DNA from: Acinetobacter phage BS46
Strand: one strand, 5' to 3'
Length of the DNA stretch: 64,000 nt
Sequence record: MN276049.1
A model generated the notes under the pieces. It had not been told where the DNA came from, did no database searches, and was given only the letters and a program-made list of their open reading frames with translations. Shown piece by piece: positions 13,319 through 36,565 of this stretch. Made by a program: the position numbers and the translations under genes. Within the stretch, counting starts at the first letter, position 1; every line of letters begins with the position of its first letter.

Positions 13319-15511
13319 GTGGGTAAGTTTTTTAAAAATGATTGGCTGTACGATATTGAAGTTTACCCGAACATTTGTACATTTGCATTCAAGGAAGCGG
13401 AAACAAATCGAAAGTTATTATTCGAGATTTCAAAGCGAAGAAATGATTTAGATGATTTTTTGGAATTTTGTAGAGAAAGTGTGAGAAATGAATATAGATG
13501 GGTAGGGTTCAATAATCTAGGGTTTGATTATCCAGTTATACATTGGATTTTACTTAAAGCTTCGTCCGCTAAATCATCTAGAGAAAAACTAAAACTTACT
13601 GCTAATCAGATTTATAAATACGCAATGAAGGTTATTGATAGTAAACGTGATGGTCAGTTTGGTATTAACATTAAATCTGAAGATTGTTTAATTATACAAT
13701 TAGATTTATTTAAGATCAACCATTATGATAATAAAGCTAAGATGACCTCGTTGAAGTTATTAGAATTTAATATGCGTTTGGACAATATTAGTGATTTACC
13801 ATTCCCTGTAGGTAAAACTTTAACATCAGAAGAGATGGATACATTAATTGAATATAACTTCTCAGATGTTGATGCTACACATATTTTTTATGAGTTGAAT
13901 TATGATGCTATTAAATTTCGATCTGAATTAACAGAAAAATACGGGTTTGATTGTACAAATTTAAATGATTCGAATATTGGAGAACAGTTCTTTATTCGTA
14001 AGATTGAAGCAGAAAATCCTAATGCATTTTATGATTATGATATTGTTTCTGGAAAGAAGATTAAGAAACAAACTAAACGACCATTTGTTCGAATTGGAGA
14101 TTGTTTGTTTGATTATCTGAAGTTTCAAACTAAAGAAATGCAAGCTTTACATGCATGGTTTAAGAAGCAAGTAATTACTGAGACGAAGGGTGTATTTAGT
14201 GATATCGAAGAACACGATCTTGGTGAGCTTGCTAATTACTGCGAGTTGGTTACAAAAGAGGTTAAGTTTAAAACAGAACCAACAGAACAGGAAAAAGAAG
14301 AGTTTTTGAAAGCTCATCCTATGGGGTGGTTTGAAGTTCGTGAACTTAAAGCAATGGAGACATTGAAAGATGAAAATGGTAATCCAGTAAAAGAATCTTA
14401 TGTTGACGATAAGGGTAAAACTAAAGAGCGTGTAGTGAAGGTCCATAAAAAGGCTTTTTACGGCTGTTATAGGCTTGCTGATACACTCAATGTGGTGTTA
14501 GGTGGTATGAGGATTGATTACGGTGTAGGAGGGCTTCACGGGGCTGTACAAGGACATCATAAAAAGACAGCAGACAAGAGAATTAAATCTTGGGATGTTG
14601 CCTCAATGTATCCTAATATTGCAATTGCAAATAGAGTTTATCCTGAACATCTTGATGAAACTTTCTGTGATAGTTATGAAGATTTTTATAATGAACGTAA
14701 GAAGTTTCCTAAAGGTACAGGTGAGAATTTGGCAATTAAACTTGGCTTGAACTGCGTGTACGGTAAGTCTAATAGTGAGTTTAGTTGTTTCTACGATACA
14801 GCATATACAATGAAGATTACTGTAAATGGACAGTTAACGTTATCTATGCTTTTAGAAAGACTTATTATTGATTGTAATGTAAAACCTCTTATGGCTAACA
14901 CAGATGGTTTTGAGGTATTGATTGATAATGATCAAATTGAAAAAGCTGATTCAATTGTAACACGTTGGGAAAAATACGTAGGATTACAAATGGAAGCTGT
15001 TGAATACTCAGATATGTTTATTCGAGATGTAAACAACTATACAGCAGTATATGTTAATGGTGATATTAAGCAGAAAGGTGCTTATGAATATAAACCATTC
15101 TTGAGTAAAGATTTGGGAATGATGCATAAAAACCATTCAGCAATTATTGTACCAATGGCAGTTGAACATGAGTTAATGGGTAAAGGCAGTGCTGAAGATT
15201 TTATTCGAAGTCATAAAGATAAGTTTGATTTTATGTTGAGAGCGAAAGTTCCACGTAACTCAAAATTGGTTCTTGAAATTGATGGTGAGGATATTGAGCA
15301 GCAAAATATCTGTCGCTACTACGTTTCTGAAGAAGGTGGTTATTTAACAAAAATTATGCCACCATTACATGAAGGTGGTGAGGATAGACGTATGAGTATT
15401 GAGAGTGGTATTAAAGTAAAGACATGTAATGATATTAATGATTTCAAATGGGATATTAATTACAGTTATTATATTGAACAAGCAGATAAGTTGCTTGAAT
15501 TTTTTCGTTAA
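13319..15511 (+). CDS. DNA polymerase, family B, with 3'-5' exonuclease domain
   Basis: ExoI YDIEVYPN, ExoII FNNLGFDYPV, ExoIII YNFSDVDATHIFYEL; PolB motifs DVASMYPN (A), KLGLNCVYGKSNS (B), ANTDGFEV (C); GTG start after AGGAGGA. Confidence 0.8.
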   Translation: MGKFFKNDWLYDIEVYPNICTFAFKEAETNRKLLFEISKRRNDLDDFLEFCRESVRNEYRWVGFNNLGFDYPVIHWILLKASSAKSSREKLKLTANQIYKYAMKVIDSKRDGQFGINIKSEDCLIIQLDLFKINHYDNKAKMTSLKLLEFNMRLDNISDLPFPVGKTLTSEEMDTLIEYNFSDVDATHIFYELNYDAIKFRSELTEKYGFDCTNLNDSNIGEQFFIRKIEAENPNAFYDYDIVSGKKIKKQTKRPFVRIGDCLFDYLKFQTKEMQALHAWFKKQVITETKGVFSDIEEHDLGELANYCELVTKEVKFKTEPTEQEKEEFLKAHPMGWFEVRELKAMETLKDENGNPVKESYVDDKGKTKERVVKVHKKAFYGCYRLADTLNVVLGGMRIDYGVGGLHGAVQGHHKKTADKRIKSWDVASMYPNIAIANRVYPEHLDETFCDSYEDFYNERKKFPKGTGENLAIKLGLNCVYGKSNSEFSCFYDTAYTMKITVNGQLTLSMLLERLIIDCNVKPLMANTDGFEVLIDNDQIEKADSIVTRWEKYVGLQMEAVEYSDMFIRDVNNYTAVYVNGDIKQKGAYEYKPFLSKDLGMMHKNHSAIIVPMAVEHELMGKGSAEDFIRSHKDKFDFMLRAKVPRNSKLVLEIDGEDIEQQNICRYYVSEEGGYLTKIMPPLHEGGEDRRMSIESGIKVKTCNDINDFKWDINYSYYIEQADKLLEFFR

Positions 15512-15523
15512 AGGAGAGTTAAT

Positions 15524-16549
15524 ATGAAATATAAAAAAGGTGATAAAGTAGAGGTTGTAGAGTTTCTTAGTTCTACAGCAGCAAGTTATGGGGTTAAAAT
15601 CGGTGATATTGGTGTTGTAGCTATTGCATATGATGTTGGTGATGGTGTTCCGTATTTTGTGAAGTTAGATGCTATCAAAACTGGTAGTAATGGTTTATGG
15701 TTTAGTGAAGAGGGTATTAAATTGGTTAAAGAAGATGGTGTTGAAAAGAAAGTTGGTGAGCTGAAAGCTGGTGATAAAGTTATTTTAACTAATGCTCGTG
15801 CTGATAATGCAAGATATTATAATTTAAAAGAAGGTATCAAAGGTACTGTACGTGAAAATGATGGTGGTACTTATAAACCTATTCTTGTTGACTTTGAGGA
15901 GGCTTCAATTTGGGTTGATGCTGGTGATTTACAATTAGATGTTGTAGTTGAAAAAGAGAAAATTGAAACTGGTGATATTGTAAGTATTATTTCTAAGGAA
16001 AAGACCACTGATAAGTACGGTTGGTCCTGTCTTATGAAGCAGGTCGGAGAATCAATGAAAGTTGATGGTATTTATGGTGTGACTGTTGAGAATGGTATTT
16101 TTAAATATCATATTGACGATCTTGTTCTGCTTCGTAAAAGTAATGATGTTGATGAGTCTCACACAGAAAATCAAGACAAACCAGTAGACGATGCAGTTAA
16201 TAAACCTAAACACTACACTTCAGATGAGAGTGGTGTTGAATGTATTGATATTACAAAGAATATGTCTTTTGTTTACGGTAATGTTTTAAAATATTGTTGG
16301 AGAGTTGGTAAGAAAGACGATGATGTTCAAGAGCTGAGCAAAGCTCTTTGGTACTCTGAGTTTGGTATTAACAATAACATTCCAATCTTTATTAGTGAAA
16401 CATCTCTTGAGGATGAGAAGAATATACACAAAGTGTTAAAATTCTCAAAAGGGTGGAAGTACGTATTGTTAAATGCTATTTATTGGAATGACAAAGAAGA
16501 AGTAAATCGTGCAGTAAAAGGGCTTCTTGAGGATATTAACATTTCTTAA
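15524..16549 (+). CDS. DUF3310-domain protein with three N-terminal SH3/KOW-like repeats
   Basis: C-terminal PKHYTSDESGVECIDITKNMSFVYGNVLKYCWR resembles DUF3310; three repeats K(K/A)GDKV... Confidence 0.55.
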   Translation: MKYKKGDKVEVVEFLSSTAASYGVKIGDIGVVAIAYDVGDGVPYFVKLDAIKTGSNGLWFSEEGIKLVKEDGVEKKVGELKAGDKVILTNARADNARYYNLKEGIKGTVRENDGGTYKPILVDFEEASIWVDAGDLQLDVVVEKEKIETGDIVSIISKEKTTDKYGWSCLMKQVGESMKVDGIYGVTVENGIFKYHIDDLVLLRKSNDVDESHTENQDKPVDDAVNKPKHYTSDESGVECIDITKNMSFVYGNVLKYCWRVGKKDDDVQELSKALWYSEFGINNNIPIFISETSLEDEKNIHKVLKFSKGWKYVLLNAIYWNDKEEVNRAVKGLLEDINIS

Positions 16550-16560
16550 CATTGTTATTG

Positions 16561-16589
16561 TTGACAAGGGAATTTATGTTTGCAATAAT
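16561..16589 (+). promoter_or_regulatory. sigma70-like promoter at start of non-coding island
   Basis: TTGACA N17 AATAAT. Confidence 0.45.
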
Positions 16590-17273
16590 ACTTATCTAGA
16601 TTGATCGAATCTGTAGGCGATACAGCATGGCAATATGTGGTCAGATAGTATATAAGGCGGTTGCTGCAAGCCTTGCACTTAAAATTCTGACATGCAACTA
16701 TTCGCACGTTGCCGATCAATCTATTAAACAAGTGATTTATTCTGTATAGAGGATTGCTTAGGCGGTCGGTTGCTTGTTTTGACTGCTAGGAATAGACTAG
16801 CAAACTTAGAGAAGTGAATAGCTTAGGTGCTAGAATATTGCAGTTCACATTACAATATTGAATTAATTACTCAATCGGTTAATGTGGCGGTGGGATTGAT
16901 CAACCATTGTAAAATACTGTTGTATTGGTGAGTTAGATTCTCCCATGTTCACTTCATCTAAGTTTAAATTAAACTGATGATCACGTAGCTTTCGGCGTAA
17001 CTAAAACCGTTGGGTTATGAAACGTTAAGTACAAGATATTCTCGAAAGTCCAAACGCCTTGAGCGATATTACGAGATGGTGACGGGAACAATGAAAGGAC
17101 AACCCCAACCCCCTACTTGCAATGTGGTATTAGCGTCAAGTCAAAATGACAAAGTGCAAGATTGTAGACTGACTGATAGGAATAGACTATCACTTTCACA
17201 ATTAAAAAACGCATAAAGCGTCTATTAATATTTAAAATAAAACACAAAGAGTGTAATAATAGGAGTAAATAAA
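16590..17273 (+). other. 0.7 kb ORF-free, GC-richer island (candidate structured ncRNA / cis element)
   Basis: No convincing ORF on either strand; repeated motifs TAGGAATAGACTA (16787-16799, 17177-17189), GGCGGT x3, GATTGATC x3; directly downstream of a consensus promoter. Confidence 0.4.
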
Positions 17274-18290
17274 ATGGCTTTTAACGCATACAATACATCT
17301 ACAAGTTCAGAAACTAAACCAAAAGTAACTGTCAATTTCGAAGCGCTCAATCAATACGTTATAGATACAGCAGAGTGTGAACAACCAGAAACTTTAACTG
17401 GTGTAATTTCTGCAATCGTTGATTTAGGTAATCAAAAACAACCTGACTCAGAATATGATGTTGATGCTGGTGATGAGAATTTAACTGTTGAAGAGTTAAT
17501 GGAGAAGTATAAAGATCAATTAGCATCTAACTTCCCTGATGATGAACAGTACGGTAAAATTACTAAATTCGCTAAAGCTTACGATGGTCAAAAGAAAGAT
17601 TGGATTATTAAGAAATTTGTAAAGCAGAAAGATCGTCAATCGGTTGCATTTGCTGTTGATTTCCCATCTATCCAATTAGATAAAGGTAAGTTCTTCGGTG
17701 ATGATTCTGGTGAAACTAAACCATTGCGTTTATGGTCTGGTGGTCAATTCTATAATCCTTTCCAAAAGAAAATGATTATTCAAAACCTTTTACCTTTGAA
17801 GGTTACAAACATTTCAAAAGTTGATGGTGAAAAGGTTTGGTCACTTAATCCAAAATCTGTTTTACATAAAATGGCAGTAGCAGCTAAGATTATCAAGCAA
17901 GAGGAAGCTTTCCTTCCACAAGACATTGATAAACTTCTTGGTAAGACATTGCAATTTAAAGTTCAGATTAAGAACACAATTGGTAAAGATGGTAAGAAGT
18001 ATTACACAGAGAAAATGTCTTTTGTTGGTGCTTTAGGTCGTGGTCAAAAAGAAGAGAGTGTTGATAAAGTACATTTGATTCAGTTTGATGAGGTTAACGA
18101 TCAGGAGTCTTTGAAAGAATTACGTAAGCATGTAATCAATACAATTGAGAATGCTACTAACTTTGAAGGAAGTGCTATTCAAGCTCAATTACTTGAAGTT
18201 CGTCCTCAGTCTTTTATGAAGAAAGAGGAAGTTAAAGTTAAAGAGTCTGTTTTTACTGATGAAGATTTGGATGATAGTCTGCCATTCTAA
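17274..18290 (+). CDS. putative single-stranded DNA-binding protein
   Basis: 338 aa; acidic C-terminal tail ...TDEDLDDSLPF ending in aromatic residue as in SSB/gp2.5/gp32; strong RBS; position in replication module. Confidence 0.4.
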   Translation: MAFNAYNTSTSSETKPKVTVNFEALNQYVIDTAECEQPETLTGVISAIVDLGNQKQPDSEYDVDAGDENLTVEELMEKYKDQLASNFPDDEQYGKITKFAKAYDGQKKDWIIKKFVKQKDRQSVAFAVDFPSIQLDKGKFFGDDSGETKPLRLWSGGQFYNPFQKKMIIQNLLPLKVTNISKVDGEKVWSLNPKSVLHKMAVAAKIIKQEEAFLPQDIDKLLGKTLQFKVQIKNTIGKDGKKYYTEKMSFVGALGRGQKEESVDKVHLIQFDEVNDQESLKELRKHVINTIENATNFEGSAIQAQLLEVRPQSFMKKEEVKVKESVFTDEDLDDSLPF

Positions 18291-18358
18291 TTTGAACAAT
18301 AATCTTAAATAAGGGGCACAAGGCCCCTTCCTAAGTAATTATATTAAGGAGATAAGTT

Positions 18359-24416: not shown

Positions 24417-24493
24417 GCGCTGTTAGCTCAGTTGGATAGAGCATTCGCCTTCTAAGTGAATGGTCACAGGTTCAAGTCCTGTACAGCGCGCCA
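24417..24493 (+). tRNA. tRNA-Arg (anticodon UCU), CCA encoded
   Basis: Cloverleaf: acceptor GCGCTGT/ACAGCGC, D-arm GCTC-AGTTGGATA-GAGC, anticodon stem TTCGC/GTGAA with loop CTTCTAA, T-arm ACAGG-TTCAAGT-CCTGT, discriminator G + CCA. Confidence 0.85.
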
Positions 24494-24628
24494 AATTAAT
24501 TATTATAATTTAATACAGGTCGTGTAGCTTAAAGAAAGCAGGTGGATTTATAAACCATTTCCCTAGATAAGGGCTTGATTCGGGGGCAGTACCCGACACG
24601 ACTACCAAATCAATGTAGGAGAGAAGAG

Positions 24629-34841: not shown

Positions 34842-35132
34842 ATGGAAAATTTAAAGTCTTTAATCATGTCAACTAACTCGCGGATGTTTATGGTTAAATT
34901 TGTCAAAGCTAATGGCGAGGTTCGCACAATGTTTGCTAAAACAGGAATTAAAAAGTTCCTGTCTAAAAAACCAAATAAACGTAAATCTTATAAACTAAAT
35001 GAAAATACTATTCGTGTATTTGATTGTGAAAAGAAAGAGTATCGTTCATTTAACATTTCAAATATTCTTGAATTTTCGTGTGGTAATAAAAAATTTGTAT
35101 CTGAAATGAGTAACATTGAGGTTAGTAATTAG
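34842..35132 (+). CDS. hypothetical basic protein
   Basis: 96 aa ORF, AGGAGG RBS. Confidence 0.45.
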   Translation: MENLKSLIMSTNSRMFMVKFVKANGEVRTMFAKTGIKKFLSKKPNKRKSYKLNENTIRVFDCEKKEYRSFNISNILEFSCGNKKFVSEMSNIEVSN

Positions 35133-35198
35133 TTGTAGCTTTAAGTAAGCTACTAAAAAATTAATTTAGATTATTTTACATGTCAATGTCGAAAGATG

Positions 35199-35227
35199 TT
35201 GACATGTTTTTTATGTTCCTATATATT
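35199..35227 (+). promoter_or_regulatory. consensus promoter whose -35 lies inside a 9-bp inverted repeat
   Basis: TTGACA N17 TATATT; ACATGTCAA (35178-35186) / TTGACATGT (35199-35207). Confidence 0.5.
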
Positions 35228-35251
35228 ATATTCATACACAGGAGATATACC

Positions 35252-35542
35252 ATGAAGCACATTCAAATTGAAAAATACGGTAACACAGCAGACAACATTG
35301 AATTTAATTATGTTGACATTAACTCTAATAACTGGATAATCTATGTAACAGTTAATAATGTTGATCTAAAATCAGATTGTTATGGAGTAGAAGGTAGTGG
35401 ATGGATTGAGATTGATGAAGGCACTTTAGATTATACTTTAGAAGTTACAAACTGTTGTGGTGAGACTTTAGAGTTATCTGAAGCTGAAAAAGAATATGTA
35501 CATAACGAAATAATTTCATTCTTGTTGGAGGAGTTATGTTAA
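35252..35542 (+). CDS. hypothetical protein
   Basis: ATG 35252 after AGGAGA. Confidence 0.45.
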   Translation: MKHIQIEKYGNTADNIEFNYVDINSNNWIIYVTVNNVDLKSDCYGVEGSGWIEIDEGTLDYTLEVTNCCGETLELSEAEKEYVHNEIISFLLEELC

Positions 35543-35754
35543 GCAAAAAGCAACTTATGTTGTTAAGAGATTGGAGATTACTGAAGAAAGGTAATATTAT
35601 TAAATCACGTCTTTCTTTTTCTATTTATGAAGTTACAGATGTTGGTGAACATTTTGTACAATTTAAATATCAAGATAATCGAATAGGTTATCTTTTTGTT
35701 ATCCCTCTAAGTATGGAAGACTTCGATGGCTTTCCGTTTGAGAAATTAAATTAA
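35536..35754 (+). CDS. hypothetical protein
   Basis: 72 aa ORF. Confidence 0.4.
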   Translation: MLSKKQLMLLRDWRLLKKGNIIKSRLSFSIYEVTDVGEHFVQFKYQDNRIGYLFVIPLSMEDFDGFPFEKLN

Positions 35755-35770
35755 TATTTATTCAAAAAGA

Positions 35771-35797
35771 AACCCCGCTTTGACGGGGCTTTTTTAC
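35771..35797. terminator. bidirectional rho-independent terminator at strand switch
   Basis: AAACCCCG-CTTTGA-CGGGGCTT flanked by A-run and T-run. Confidence 0.7.
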
Positions 35798-35806
35798 ATC
35801 TATTGT

Positions 35807-36565
35807 TTATAACATCTCAGAAAACTTCAATAACACTCGTTTCAATTCTTTTGTGGTAATATCACGAGTAGCACTCTTGCTTTCTAACACTTCATTCTTC
35901 AACGCATTAATGTATGCAGAACAAGCAACTGTATTTTCTCTGCTATACCCTTTTGTACTGTCAATACGATCTAAGGACAAAGAATGTAATCCATCTACTG
36001 TTAATTCAACGCCAGAATAATAACAACGTTTACGAGACATTAACCGTTTCATATCAGAGAATGTTAAAGCAAACTCAATTCCACGTCTTGCACACTGGAT
36101 TTGCTTATGAAGAAGCTTAACAGATACATACGTATCAAATGGTACTTTGTTAGTATCTACACATAATTGACTAAACACTTCGTTGGTGTTGCGTAAATCT
36201 AATTCGTAATCTAGGTTAATTCCTGTACGTTCAAAGATCGAAATTGTAGAAGGTTCACACAGCTTTAAATAATCTTCATGAATATCTGTGATTGTCTTAA
36301 TACCGTTCTCGTGAGTAATGTCTGATAACGAGATCACGTCATTCAAACATAGCTGCATTAGAATATAGTTATATTCTTCGATATAAACTTCTTTTAAGCT
36401 ATGTGAGCTTCGATTAGAGCAATAGTTCTGTATAAAGTAGTCTAATGTATAGTCTAGCACTTTAGCAGCCTTAGAGAGCAGTTTAGGGCGGTTTAATGAT
36501 GGGTTGTCAAAAGCACATAAGACACGAATTGGTGTTTGTTTAGTGATATTGTTTGTTAAAGACAT
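35807..36565 (-). CDS. putative HNH-family homing endonuclease
   Basis: C-terminal SLDRIDSTKGYSRENTVACSAYINALKN resembles HNH_3-type motif; isolated gene at module boundary. Confidence 0.35.
   Translation of the reverse strand: MSLTNNITKQTPIRVLCAFDNPSLNRPKLLSKAAKVLDYTLDYFIQNYCSNRSSHSLKEVYIEEYNYILMQLCLNDVISLSDITHENGIKTITDIHEDYLKLCEPSTISIFERTGINLDYELDLRNTNEVFSQLCVDTNKVPFDTYVSVKLLHKQIQCARRGIEFALTFSDMKRLMSRKRCYYSGVELTVDGLHSLSLDRIDSTKGYSRENTVACSAYINALKNEVLESKSATRDITTKELKRVLLKFSEML

Follow-up and report, generated by a model that had tools for sequence, protein, structure and literature searches.

What is encoded in a stretch of phage DNA that holds no gene? The question is raised by positions 16550-17273 of a 64,000-nucleotide sequence of Acinetobacter phage BS46 (MN276049.1). 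The whole of this sequence is called the window below, and the 724 bases in question the island. The island lies between the DUF3310 gene (15524-16549; Pfam PF11753, E 1.7e-14) and an SSB-like gene (17274-18290), and in BS46 it is flanked by replication genes. A first-pass annotation had offered three explanations: a structured non-coding RNA (a small RNA or a ribozyme remnant), a replication origin, and the scar of an intron or homing element. We conclude that the island holds a + strand locus of modular non-coding RNA and is neither junk nor an origin nor the scar of an intron. Very probably it constitutes an array of structured non-coding RNAs on that strand. The first proposal is thus strongly supported, although not as a single small RNA or ribozyme remnant: at least four distinct conserved RNA families are present, with a predicted tRNA-shaped RNA leading, and the locus is therefore richer than a single structured RNA.

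The island and its parts

The following features were identified.

16561-16589, + strand: near-consensus sigma-70-type promoter, TTGACA-N17-(TG)-AATAAT (11/12, extended -10 TG)
16597-16723, + strand: module A, a four-way-junction RNA of tRNA-like topology, based on covariation of P1, P2 and P4
16597-16607 and 16713-16723, + strand: helix P1 of module A
16608-16610, + strand: junction AAU of module A
16611-16615 and 16621-16625, + strand: helix P2 of module A, with loop GGCGA at 16616-16620
16626-16691, + strand: P3, the hypervariable arm of module A
16694-16698 and 16708-16712, + strand: helix P4 of module A, with loop UAUUCGCAC at 16699-16707, abutting the 3' strand of P1
16726-16779, + strand: hairpin G, closed by AAACAAG / CUUGUUU (RNAfold -15.1 kcal/mol, z -2.2)
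16780-16802, + strand: hairpin H1, UGAC-U-GCUAG-GAAUAGA-CUAGC-A, repeat copy 1, with covariation in the H family
16803-16964, + strand: unit C (5' strand 16803-16819, interior 16820-16946, 3' strand 16947-16964), with a covarying stem
16965-17034, + strand: spacer X, no recognisable module
17035-17169, + strand: module E, a pseudoknotted RNA of ~130 nt whose helices and pseudoknot keep pairing across lineages
17170-17192, + strand: hairpin H2, UGAC-U-GAUAG-GAAUAGA-CUAUC-A, repeat copy 2, with covariation in the H family
17207-17223, + strand: short hairpin ACGC-AUAAA-GCGU with an A/U-rich tail, a weak terminator at best

The stretch had been described as gene-free, and this holds. All open reading frames (ORFs) in the island are at most 68 amino acids long, and the longest (17010-17216), which overlaps module E, is interrupted by a stop codon in a 96%-identical metagenome copy (contig L063). 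This ORF could be taken as the remains of a decayed protein-coding gene. However, it is broken in the closest relative, phage Phab24 also has no gene at this position, and the conservation is that of compensatory base pairing and is not codon-like. The probability of a pseudogene is therefore negligible. Phab24 (93.6 kb) is 93% identical to BS46 over 15500-18300, and unrelated phages contain unannotated DNA that matches parts of the island at 94-100% identity, so that the conservation is beyond chance.

The GC content is raised as claimed, but modestly: 36.6%, compared to 33.3% for the flanks and 32.8% for the window as a whole. The rise is mild because the island is only at the 91st percentile of 724-nt windows. 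The hexamer GGCGGT does occur three times (16656, 16761, 16886), which is three of the eight copies in the whole window, both strands counted. The element GATTGATC, also listed as a triple repeat, has two copies (16599, 16894), whereas the third (16714) is its reverse complement GATCAATC. The copies at 16599 and 16714 pair with each other in helix P1 of module A.

The promoter noted at 16561 was confirmed as the best site of the region, and its predicted start is the first base of module A or just before it. Promoter-like sites are not in excess overall (10 vs 7.2 +/- 2.6 in shuffles). The direct repeat is longer than had been reported, 23 nt with 21/23 identical positions (16780-16802 and 17170-17192), and no third good copy was found anywhere in the 64-kb window. 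Both copies are hairpins, H1 and H2, and the two differences between them, C>A and G>T, are compensatory. The repeats were also suspected to be boundaries, and this they are. Homology to Phab24 stops at 16803, right after the first copy, and resumes at 17170 with the second. In place of C, X and E, Phab24 contains a 137-nt cassette (L001 3299-3435).

No known RNA family was found in the island. The Rfam cmscan search that had been advised, run with gathering thresholds on the window and with E up to 10 on 16400-17400, produced only a tRNA elsewhere. ARAGORN detected no tRNA in the island. The Rfam covariance models of GOLLD and ROOL and the CRISPR-DR models had no match in the window, and no Rfam group I or group II intron was found in the window or the island. 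Literature searches by topic and by exact sequence retrieved no description of these RNAs. The phiAbp1 transcriptome paper makes no mention of non-coding RNA, and the prophage small RNA svsR/co293 proved to be a different element.

The two other first-pass proposals are rejected. For a scar of an intron or homing element, both flanking genes are complete, the gene order in Phab24 is the same, no Rfam intron is present, and the repeats are a conserved hairpin module. For a replication origin, neither tandem repeats nor iterons were found, and no DnaA box matches within the island, whose GC content exceeds that of its flanks. The skew switches at 35-36 kb, and in other phages the context of the modules varies and includes structural genes. 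Both GC skew and gene orientation switch at about 35000-36000: the genes lie on the + strand as far as about 35 kb and on the - strand beyond. This region is more plausible than the island as a replication or transcription boundary.

Structure and distribution of module A

Related loci were gathered by pattern scans of IMG/VR and metagenomes. Forty distinct Acinetobacter-type copies of module A were aligned with P3 masked. They have a common 5' part (the 5' strand of P1, AAU and P2) and a common 3' part (P4 and the 3' strand of P1). The P3 arm between the two halves cannot be aligned and has about 20-90 nt in these copies. Changes on both sides were observed in 9/12 tested pairs of P1 and 4/5 pairs of P2. 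Over P1 and P2, 90.5% of cells are paired, compared to 24-46% when the partners are slid, and none of 500 shuffles matched the observed values. The 20-mer GCAACTATTCGCACGTTGCC is invariant in 40/40 copies, and so is GCAACUAUUCGCACGUUGCC (P4, its loop and the next base), including loci recovered by the 5' anchor alone. G.U pairs outnumber A.C pairs 18 to 7 on the + strand. The elements follow each other in the order P1, AAU, P2, P3, two nucleotides, P4 and the 3' strand of P1 without a linker, which is the topology of a cloverleaf.

A second clade of module A was observed in enterobacterial phages. Phages of Klebsiella, Cronobacter and Shigella contain unannotated DNA (L069 1201-1243) with 88% identity to 43 nt of the window's P3 (16643-16685). 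The architecture of the enterobacterial type is GUUGUGGUG-AAU-GCGCA-GGCUGA-UGCGC ... P3 ... GCCGG-AGAUCAGCA-CCGGC-CACCACAAC. Its 5' 15-mer is present in at least 120 IMG/VR loci, with 76 distinct elements among the matches listed. The core of module A is specific to the host clade: all Acinetobacter phages have one invariant core, and enterobacterial phages have another. P3 seems to be a sub-module that can be moved, because the arm is 88% identical while the cores belong to different clades. It is hypervariable and ranges from 20 to 145 nt over all copies.

The loop-loop contact and P4 were analysed in 35 Acinetobacter-type and 41 enterobacterial-type sequences combined. The P4 stem covaries between the clades (GCAAC/GUUGC, GCCGG/CCGGC, GCAGG/CCUGC). 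The last four bases of the P2 loop and bases 4-7 of the P4 loop form the combinations GCGA:UCGC (33), CUGA:UCAG (36) and UCGA:UCGA (3). These tetrads are fully complementary in 72/76 sequences, compared to 34 on average and 47 at most in shuffles. Contig L152 bridges the clades, as it combines an enterobacterial P1 with the Acinetobacter-type GGCGA loop and the matching GAUCGCAU loop. The array of L152 also contains an H hairpin and a hammerhead-like sequence. Since P4 is contiguous with P1 and the side loops covary, module A is predicted to form a four-way junction, with P4 stacked on P1 and the two loops kissing. The covarying tetrads are a contact analogous to that of the D and T loops of tRNA, and of a different kind. 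As judged from the alignments, the topology would be that of tRNA, with the anticodon arm swapped for an exchangeable domain.

By sequence criteria, module A is not a tRNA. In the region 16400-17400, neither ARAGORN nor the Rfam model RF00005 with E up to 10 matched module A or the interior of unit C. Fri1-like phages are said to encode a CCA-adding enzyme (PMC5537680). No such enzyme was found by Pfam in two phiAB1 proteins or eleven window proteins, and this lead was dropped.

The promoters are positioned relative to P1. In most lineages (nearly all of those using the host polymerase) the -10 hexamer ends 6 nt upstream of an 8-bp P1. BS46 and Phab24 have a spacing of 10 nt and a P1 extended by 3 bp. 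With the -10 box at a fixed distance from P1, module A is likely to be the 5' end of the primary transcript.

Unannotated copies of the module A core were found in 144 records of Acinetobacter phages (Friunavirus, Obolenskvirus, the Phab24 type, HFM1 and others). When metagenomes were scanned with the invariant 20-mer, 12 contigs were recovered, each with the 20-mer inside a module A-type sequence. None of the 12 gave a separate host target site; one of them, L060, ends before the 5' half. Module A occurs alone with its own promoter and terminator in L052, L042, L061 and L062. In Friunavirus genomes a lone module A, without such a promoter, lies between a small late gene and the gene of tail tubular protein A. 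In phiAB1 (NC_028675 25106-25174, the same as L038 2001-2069) the start annotated for this tail protein is the ATG of AUGCAAC, within module A. A start with a good Shine-Dalgarno box, AAGGAGG, is found 69 nt downstream. The same over-extension of the coding sequence into module A is seen in many Friunavirus records.

A type 2 element was observed in the e14 prophage of E. coli K-12 (L195 1501-1632). With module A it has in common P1 (GUUGUGGUG/CACCACAAC) and the AAU junction, and a P4 hairpin, CCGGG-AGGCA-CCCGG, is likewise stacked on P1. The element lies under the hypothetical gene ymfH, with which it overlaps, and is present in 1853/5426 complete E. coli genomes. This element may be a relative of module A.

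Hairpins, unit C, module E and the order of the arrays

Unit C is closed by a 17-bp helix with one bulged A, which in BS46 encloses an interior of 127 nt. The stem is 99.1% paired, eight pairs are changed on both sides, and 0/500 shuffles scored as high. The stem contains 25 G.U pairs and two A.C pairs, which assigns unit C to the + strand. Positions 16803-16966 are 94-98% identical to unannotated DNA of about 59 Obolenskvirus genomes (myoviruses of ~44 kb). Across lineages the interiors have 29 to 127 nt and differ in sequence. The interior in BS46 ends with a T-arm-like hairpin, GGUGAG-UUAGAUU-CUCCC. Two other interiors match the Rfam tRNA model (L005, 40.8 bits; L054, 28.1 bits). One and the same hairpin recurs upstream of tRNA-Arg in L066 and upstream of a C unit in both L054 and L049. 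Thus C units and tRNAs occupy the same slots.

Among the fetched loci, hairpin G is shared only with Phab24, at 95% identity. By eye, its interior resembles the motif CUGUAUAGGG...GGUUG of L040, L065, L023, L056 and L059.

The H hairpins consist of UGAC-N, a 5-bp stem, a GAAAGA or GAAUAGA loop, the returning stem and an A. In 19 distinct copies, with the 3' register set by eye, all five stem pairs covary and 94.7% of cells are paired. H hairpins are found upstream of C units, of module A (L056, L057), of a genuine tRNA-Phe (L051) and of a hammerhead-like sequence (L057). Module E is followed by H in BS46, L063, L048 and L023. From this arrangement, H appears to behave as punctuation and as a site of cassette exchange.

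A different role for H is suggested by the sequence that follows it. H and the start of unit C could mimic a type I-F CRISPR repeat and act as an RNA anti-CRISPR or CRISPR RNA-like decoy against the I-F systems of Acinetobacter. RNA anti-CRISPRs derived from solitary repeats are known (PMC10651486). The string AA(C/U)UUAGAGAA stands after the hairpin, the I-F repeats of A. baumannii (GTTCATGGCGGCATACGCCATTTAGAAA) and of L066 (GTTCACTGCCATGTAGGCAGCTTAGAAA) end in hairpin-(C/U)UUAGAAA, and the 3' strand of unit C begins with GUUCAC as the I-F repeat does. However, the match is short and needs an offset of 2-3 nt and a 1-nt insertion, and the UUAGAG segment is base-paired within the covarying C stem. 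Moreover, H also precedes tRNAs, module A and hammerhead-like sequences, its stems vary freely, and neither a 28-nt repeat nor a CRISPR-DR match is present in the window. We give CRISPR mimicry hardly any credence. A solitary type I-F repeat, GTTCACTGCCATGTAGGCAGCTTAGAAA, was observed at L066 2904-2931 (metagenome contig Ga0075465_10002734; CRISPR-DR4, 41.6 bits), followed by a terminator. L066 is a phage contig with module A and three tRNAs, and this repeat could be an RNA anti-CRISPR.

Module E is 96% identical to the copy in L063, where it lies directly 3' of module A. Other homologues are present in Obolenskvirus phages and in the IMG/VR contigs L023 and L048. The single-stranded stretches CGAAAG, AUAUUACG, AACAAUGAAAG and CAAAAUG(A)CAAAGUG are conserved. 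The helices Pa, Pc and Pe and a 4-bp pseudoknot keep their pairing through different sequences in three to four lineages. The variants are as follows.

Pa: UCUCG/CGAGA, UCACG/CGUGA, AGACG/CGUCU
Pc: GGG/CCC, GUGA/UCAC, GCGA/UCGC
Pe: CUUGCA/UGCAAG, GAUACA/UGUAUC, AACACA/UGUGUU
Pseudoknot: GUCC/GGAC, GCCA/UGGC, GGCA/UGCC, GCAC/GUGC

Spacer X has no homologue among the fetched loci and folds no better than shuffles (z -0.13). It contains both the CUGAUGA and the GAAA strings. A candidate hammerhead at 16974-17022 was rejected, as the intervening stretch, by eye, cannot close stem II and Rfam gives no match.

At the 3' end, the + strand fold of 17166-17240 has z -3.0, and the terminator scan near 17207-17223 called a terminator on the - strand only. 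Arrays of other lineages end in a strong intrinsic terminator. The poor + strand terminator, with the SSB-like gene beginning within 50 nt and the same arrangement in Phab24, would fit a long cis-acting leader that regulates this gene by attenuation or stabilisation of its mRNA. However, in other phages the modules precede unrelated genes or end in strong terminators, and a further promoter-like site (17231-17260) lies directly upstream of the gene. A leader function is accordingly improbable.

In the aligned loci, the modules follow a fixed grammar on one strand, with a sigma-70-like promoter upstream in most lineages and usually a strong terminator downstream. The order of modules is constant and module A is always the first. 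In BS46 the order on the + strand is promoter, A, G, H1, C, X, E, H2 and the weak terminator hairpin. The same modules are found elsewhere among head, tail or terminase genes, or near Q and lysis genes. The motif GGGGCAUGMAAYCCCGAUUGAUG of the Phab24 cassette was also observed in several Obolenskvirus and IMG/VR arrays, just 5' of an H hairpin, and may represent a further module (F).

The constant order could also mean that the array is one large multi-domain RNA acting as a whole, similar to GOLLD and ROOL, and not a precursor of small RNAs. In L016 and L065 the modules are nearly linkerless, the 3' strand of P1 in module A running into the UGAC of H and then into the C stem. GOLLD and ROOL are likewise neighbours of phage tRNA islands, and the variable linker of GOLLD can hold tRNAs (PMC12286853, PMC5737381). 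On the other hand, each module has been seen without others: module A alone, A plus E plus H in L063, and two tandem H plus C units in L023. Even phages that are 93% identical differ in their cassettes, and neither the GOLLD nor the ROOL model of Rfam matches. A single large RNA is therefore unlikely, and an array of separable modules is preferred.

Transfer RNA genes are neighbours of this array in some phages. A same-strand tRNA is present within 1.5 kb downstream of module A in 7/36 Acinetobacter-type and 8/53 enterobacterial type 1 copies. Some of these tRNAs start 5-10 nt after P1, a tRNA-like spacing, for instance tRNA-Ser, tRNA-Arg and tRNA-Met in Klebsiella phage KP591P1. In the window itself, an odd tRNA-like gene (24518-24604, + strand) was observed about 25 nt after tRNA-Arg(UCU) (24417-24493). 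Its variable arm is long, its anticodon is UAU, its T loop (GGCAGUA) is non-canonical, and ACCA is encoded. A search of this region by itself with the Rfam tRNA model gave 30.5 bits, whereas ARAGORN and the whole-window Rfam scan missed the gene. A promoter-like site, TTGACA-N17-CATTAT, was read by eye upstream of the tRNA-Arg. Hammerhead-like sequences (CUGAUGA, stem II, GAAAC, stem III, then GUC), recognised partly by eye, were seen in the arrays of L049, L057 and L152. The one at L057 4513-4560, directly after an H hairpin, scores 21.8 bits with HH9, below the Rfam threshold.

Other searches gave nothing. A scan of one bacterial genome per species with an H plus C anchor produced chance matches only and no Acinetobacter chromosome. 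The plasmid collection contained no match. Antisense targets of the variable parts, searched within the window, were not above chance.

The island might also act as DNA, either as an origin or as a recombination or packaging hot spot with hairpins forming in single-stranded DNA. It lies between replication genes in BS46 and is rich in inverted repeats, the H repeats coincide with a recombination boundary, and folding is no worse on the - strand than on the + strand. However, the island has no iterons, no DnaA boxes and no skew switch, and the modules occur elsewhere among head, tail, terminase, Q or lysis genes. G.U pairs far exceed A.C pairs on the + strand, the promoters are precisely set at P1, and tRNA genes share the arrays and their strand. 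A role at the DNA level is very improbable, and the array of + strand RNAs is retained.

Proposed mechanism and known systems

The observations can be united as follows. Host RNA polymerase would start at the promoter 16561-16589, and the first transcribed bases would form P1 of module A. Along the transcript, the modules A, G, H1, C, X, E and H2 would follow one another, each folding independently. Module A would be tRNA-shaped, with P4 on P1, the P2 and P4 loops pairing like the D and T loops of tRNA, and an exchangeable arm in the position of the anticodon arm. Unit C would carry variable cargo on its conserved long helix with the bulged A, and module E would form a compact pseudoknot. The H hairpins would punctuate the modules, and their repetition would let recombination swap cassettes. 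We infer that tRNA-processing or double-strand-specific host RNases release several stable small RNAs from the precursor, and in relatives hammerhead ribozymes may take part in this. The small RNAs would act on a host factor that recognises the tRNA shape, either supporting translation or tRNA metabolism or serving as decoys.

Several observations weigh against this scheme. The transcript, its ends and any processing are predicted from sequence. The fold of the whole island (z -2.2 on the + strand, -4.4 on the - strand) does not pick a strand. The single-sequence folds of module E and spacer X are no better than shuffles; for module E, an unremarkable fold energy is expected because of the pseudoknot. 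The + strand terminator is weak, and partial read-through into the gene at 17274 is likely because the 17207-17223 hairpin is poor on this strand. The 3' register of H, set by eye, favours pairing. Both the P2 and the P4 loops are nearly invariant within the Acinetobacter clade, and the loop-loop covariation reflects a few clade-level events rather than many independent ones. Module A has no 7-nt anticodon loop, no 7-nt T loop (UUCRANN) and no CCA after P1, its P4 loop UAUUCGCAC has 9 nt instead of 7, and it is recognised neither by ARAGORN nor by the Rfam tRNA model. Finally, only about 15-20% of module A copies have a tRNA nearby.

The modules with their structures and strand, the geometry of the promoters and the distribution across phages are established by these analyses. 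Taken as a whole, a promoter-driven array precursor that is cut into small RNAs with a tRNA-related role is somewhat favoured. For processing into separate small RNAs and the tRNA-related role, considered by themselves, the chances seem evenly balanced. A more specific proposal, which we regard as tentative and rather doubtful, is that module A is a new tRNA-shaped class of RNA in phages across gammaproteobacterial hosts, which attains an L-shape through covarying kissing loops and engages a host-specific factor that reads the tRNA shape. If this were true, module A could be a decoy against tRNA-directed immunity, or could capture the tRNA processing or modification machinery, and C, E and H would be further effectors delivered from one precursor.

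Friunavirus and Obolenskvirus are the main therapy candidates against multidrug-resistant Acinetobacter baumannii. Module A is unannotated in more than 140 of their genomes, and in some of these it lies under a wrongly extended coding sequence of a tail protein. Four RNA families, A, the C scaffold, E and H, are new to Rfam, and their shared grammar also accepts tRNAs and hammerhead-like sequences. With short modules and culturable phages and hosts, this is a tractable system for asking why phages put elaborate non-coding RNAs beside tRNA islands. The contrast between the host-specific core and the portable arm of module A points to a way of finding the host partner.

Among known systems, RNA anti-CRISPRs and solitary repeats resemble the arrays in being short conserved hairpins in phage non-coding DNA, with a weak I-F resemblance 3' of the H hairpin. 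However, the array lacks their defining repeat sequence and register, and the H stems vary. Module A can be compared to the tRNA-like structures of plant viruses, mascRNA and the tmRNA domain, with which it would share a cloverleaf-like junction, a stacked T-like arm and a contact between D-like and T-like loops. It differs in that the predicted contact is a 4-bp Watson-Crick kissing of a 5-6-nt loop with a 9-nt loop. Besides, module A is placed at the 5' end of the transcript, and the arm in the anticodon position is hypervariable and 20-145 nt long.

Bacterial Y RNA (YrlA) consists of a long protein-binding stem and a tRNA-like domain. Similarly, in unit C a long conserved helix, interrupted by a single bulged nucleotide, closes a domain that is tRNA-like in some lineages, and module A is predicted to be tRNA-shaped. 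In contrast to YrlA, the tRNA-like insert of unit C has its own acceptor-like stem and is not joined via the anticodon position, and Rfam gives no match.

Closest of all known systems are the phage tRNA arrays, together with the GOLLD and ROOL RNAs found alongside such arrays. The latter have one conserved fold of 580-800 nt, whereas the array is composed of separable modules of 23-165 nt that match neither model, and its hosts are Gammaproteobacteria, unlike those of GOLLD and ROOL. Like the island, GOLLD and ROOL are non-coding, highly structured, phage-borne and often located near tRNA islands, and GOLLD, like the arrays, has a variable region able to contain tRNAs (PMC5737381, PMC12286853). 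As for the phage tRNA arrays, the one in BS46 differs from them in containing no canonical tRNA, anticodon loops, canonical T loops or CCA ends. The tRNA cluster of T4, an example of such arrays, includes two stable RNAs of unknown function. Both kinds of array appear to be polycistronic, promoter-driven sets of small structured RNAs, and relatives of the BS46 array have tRNAs in the same slots.

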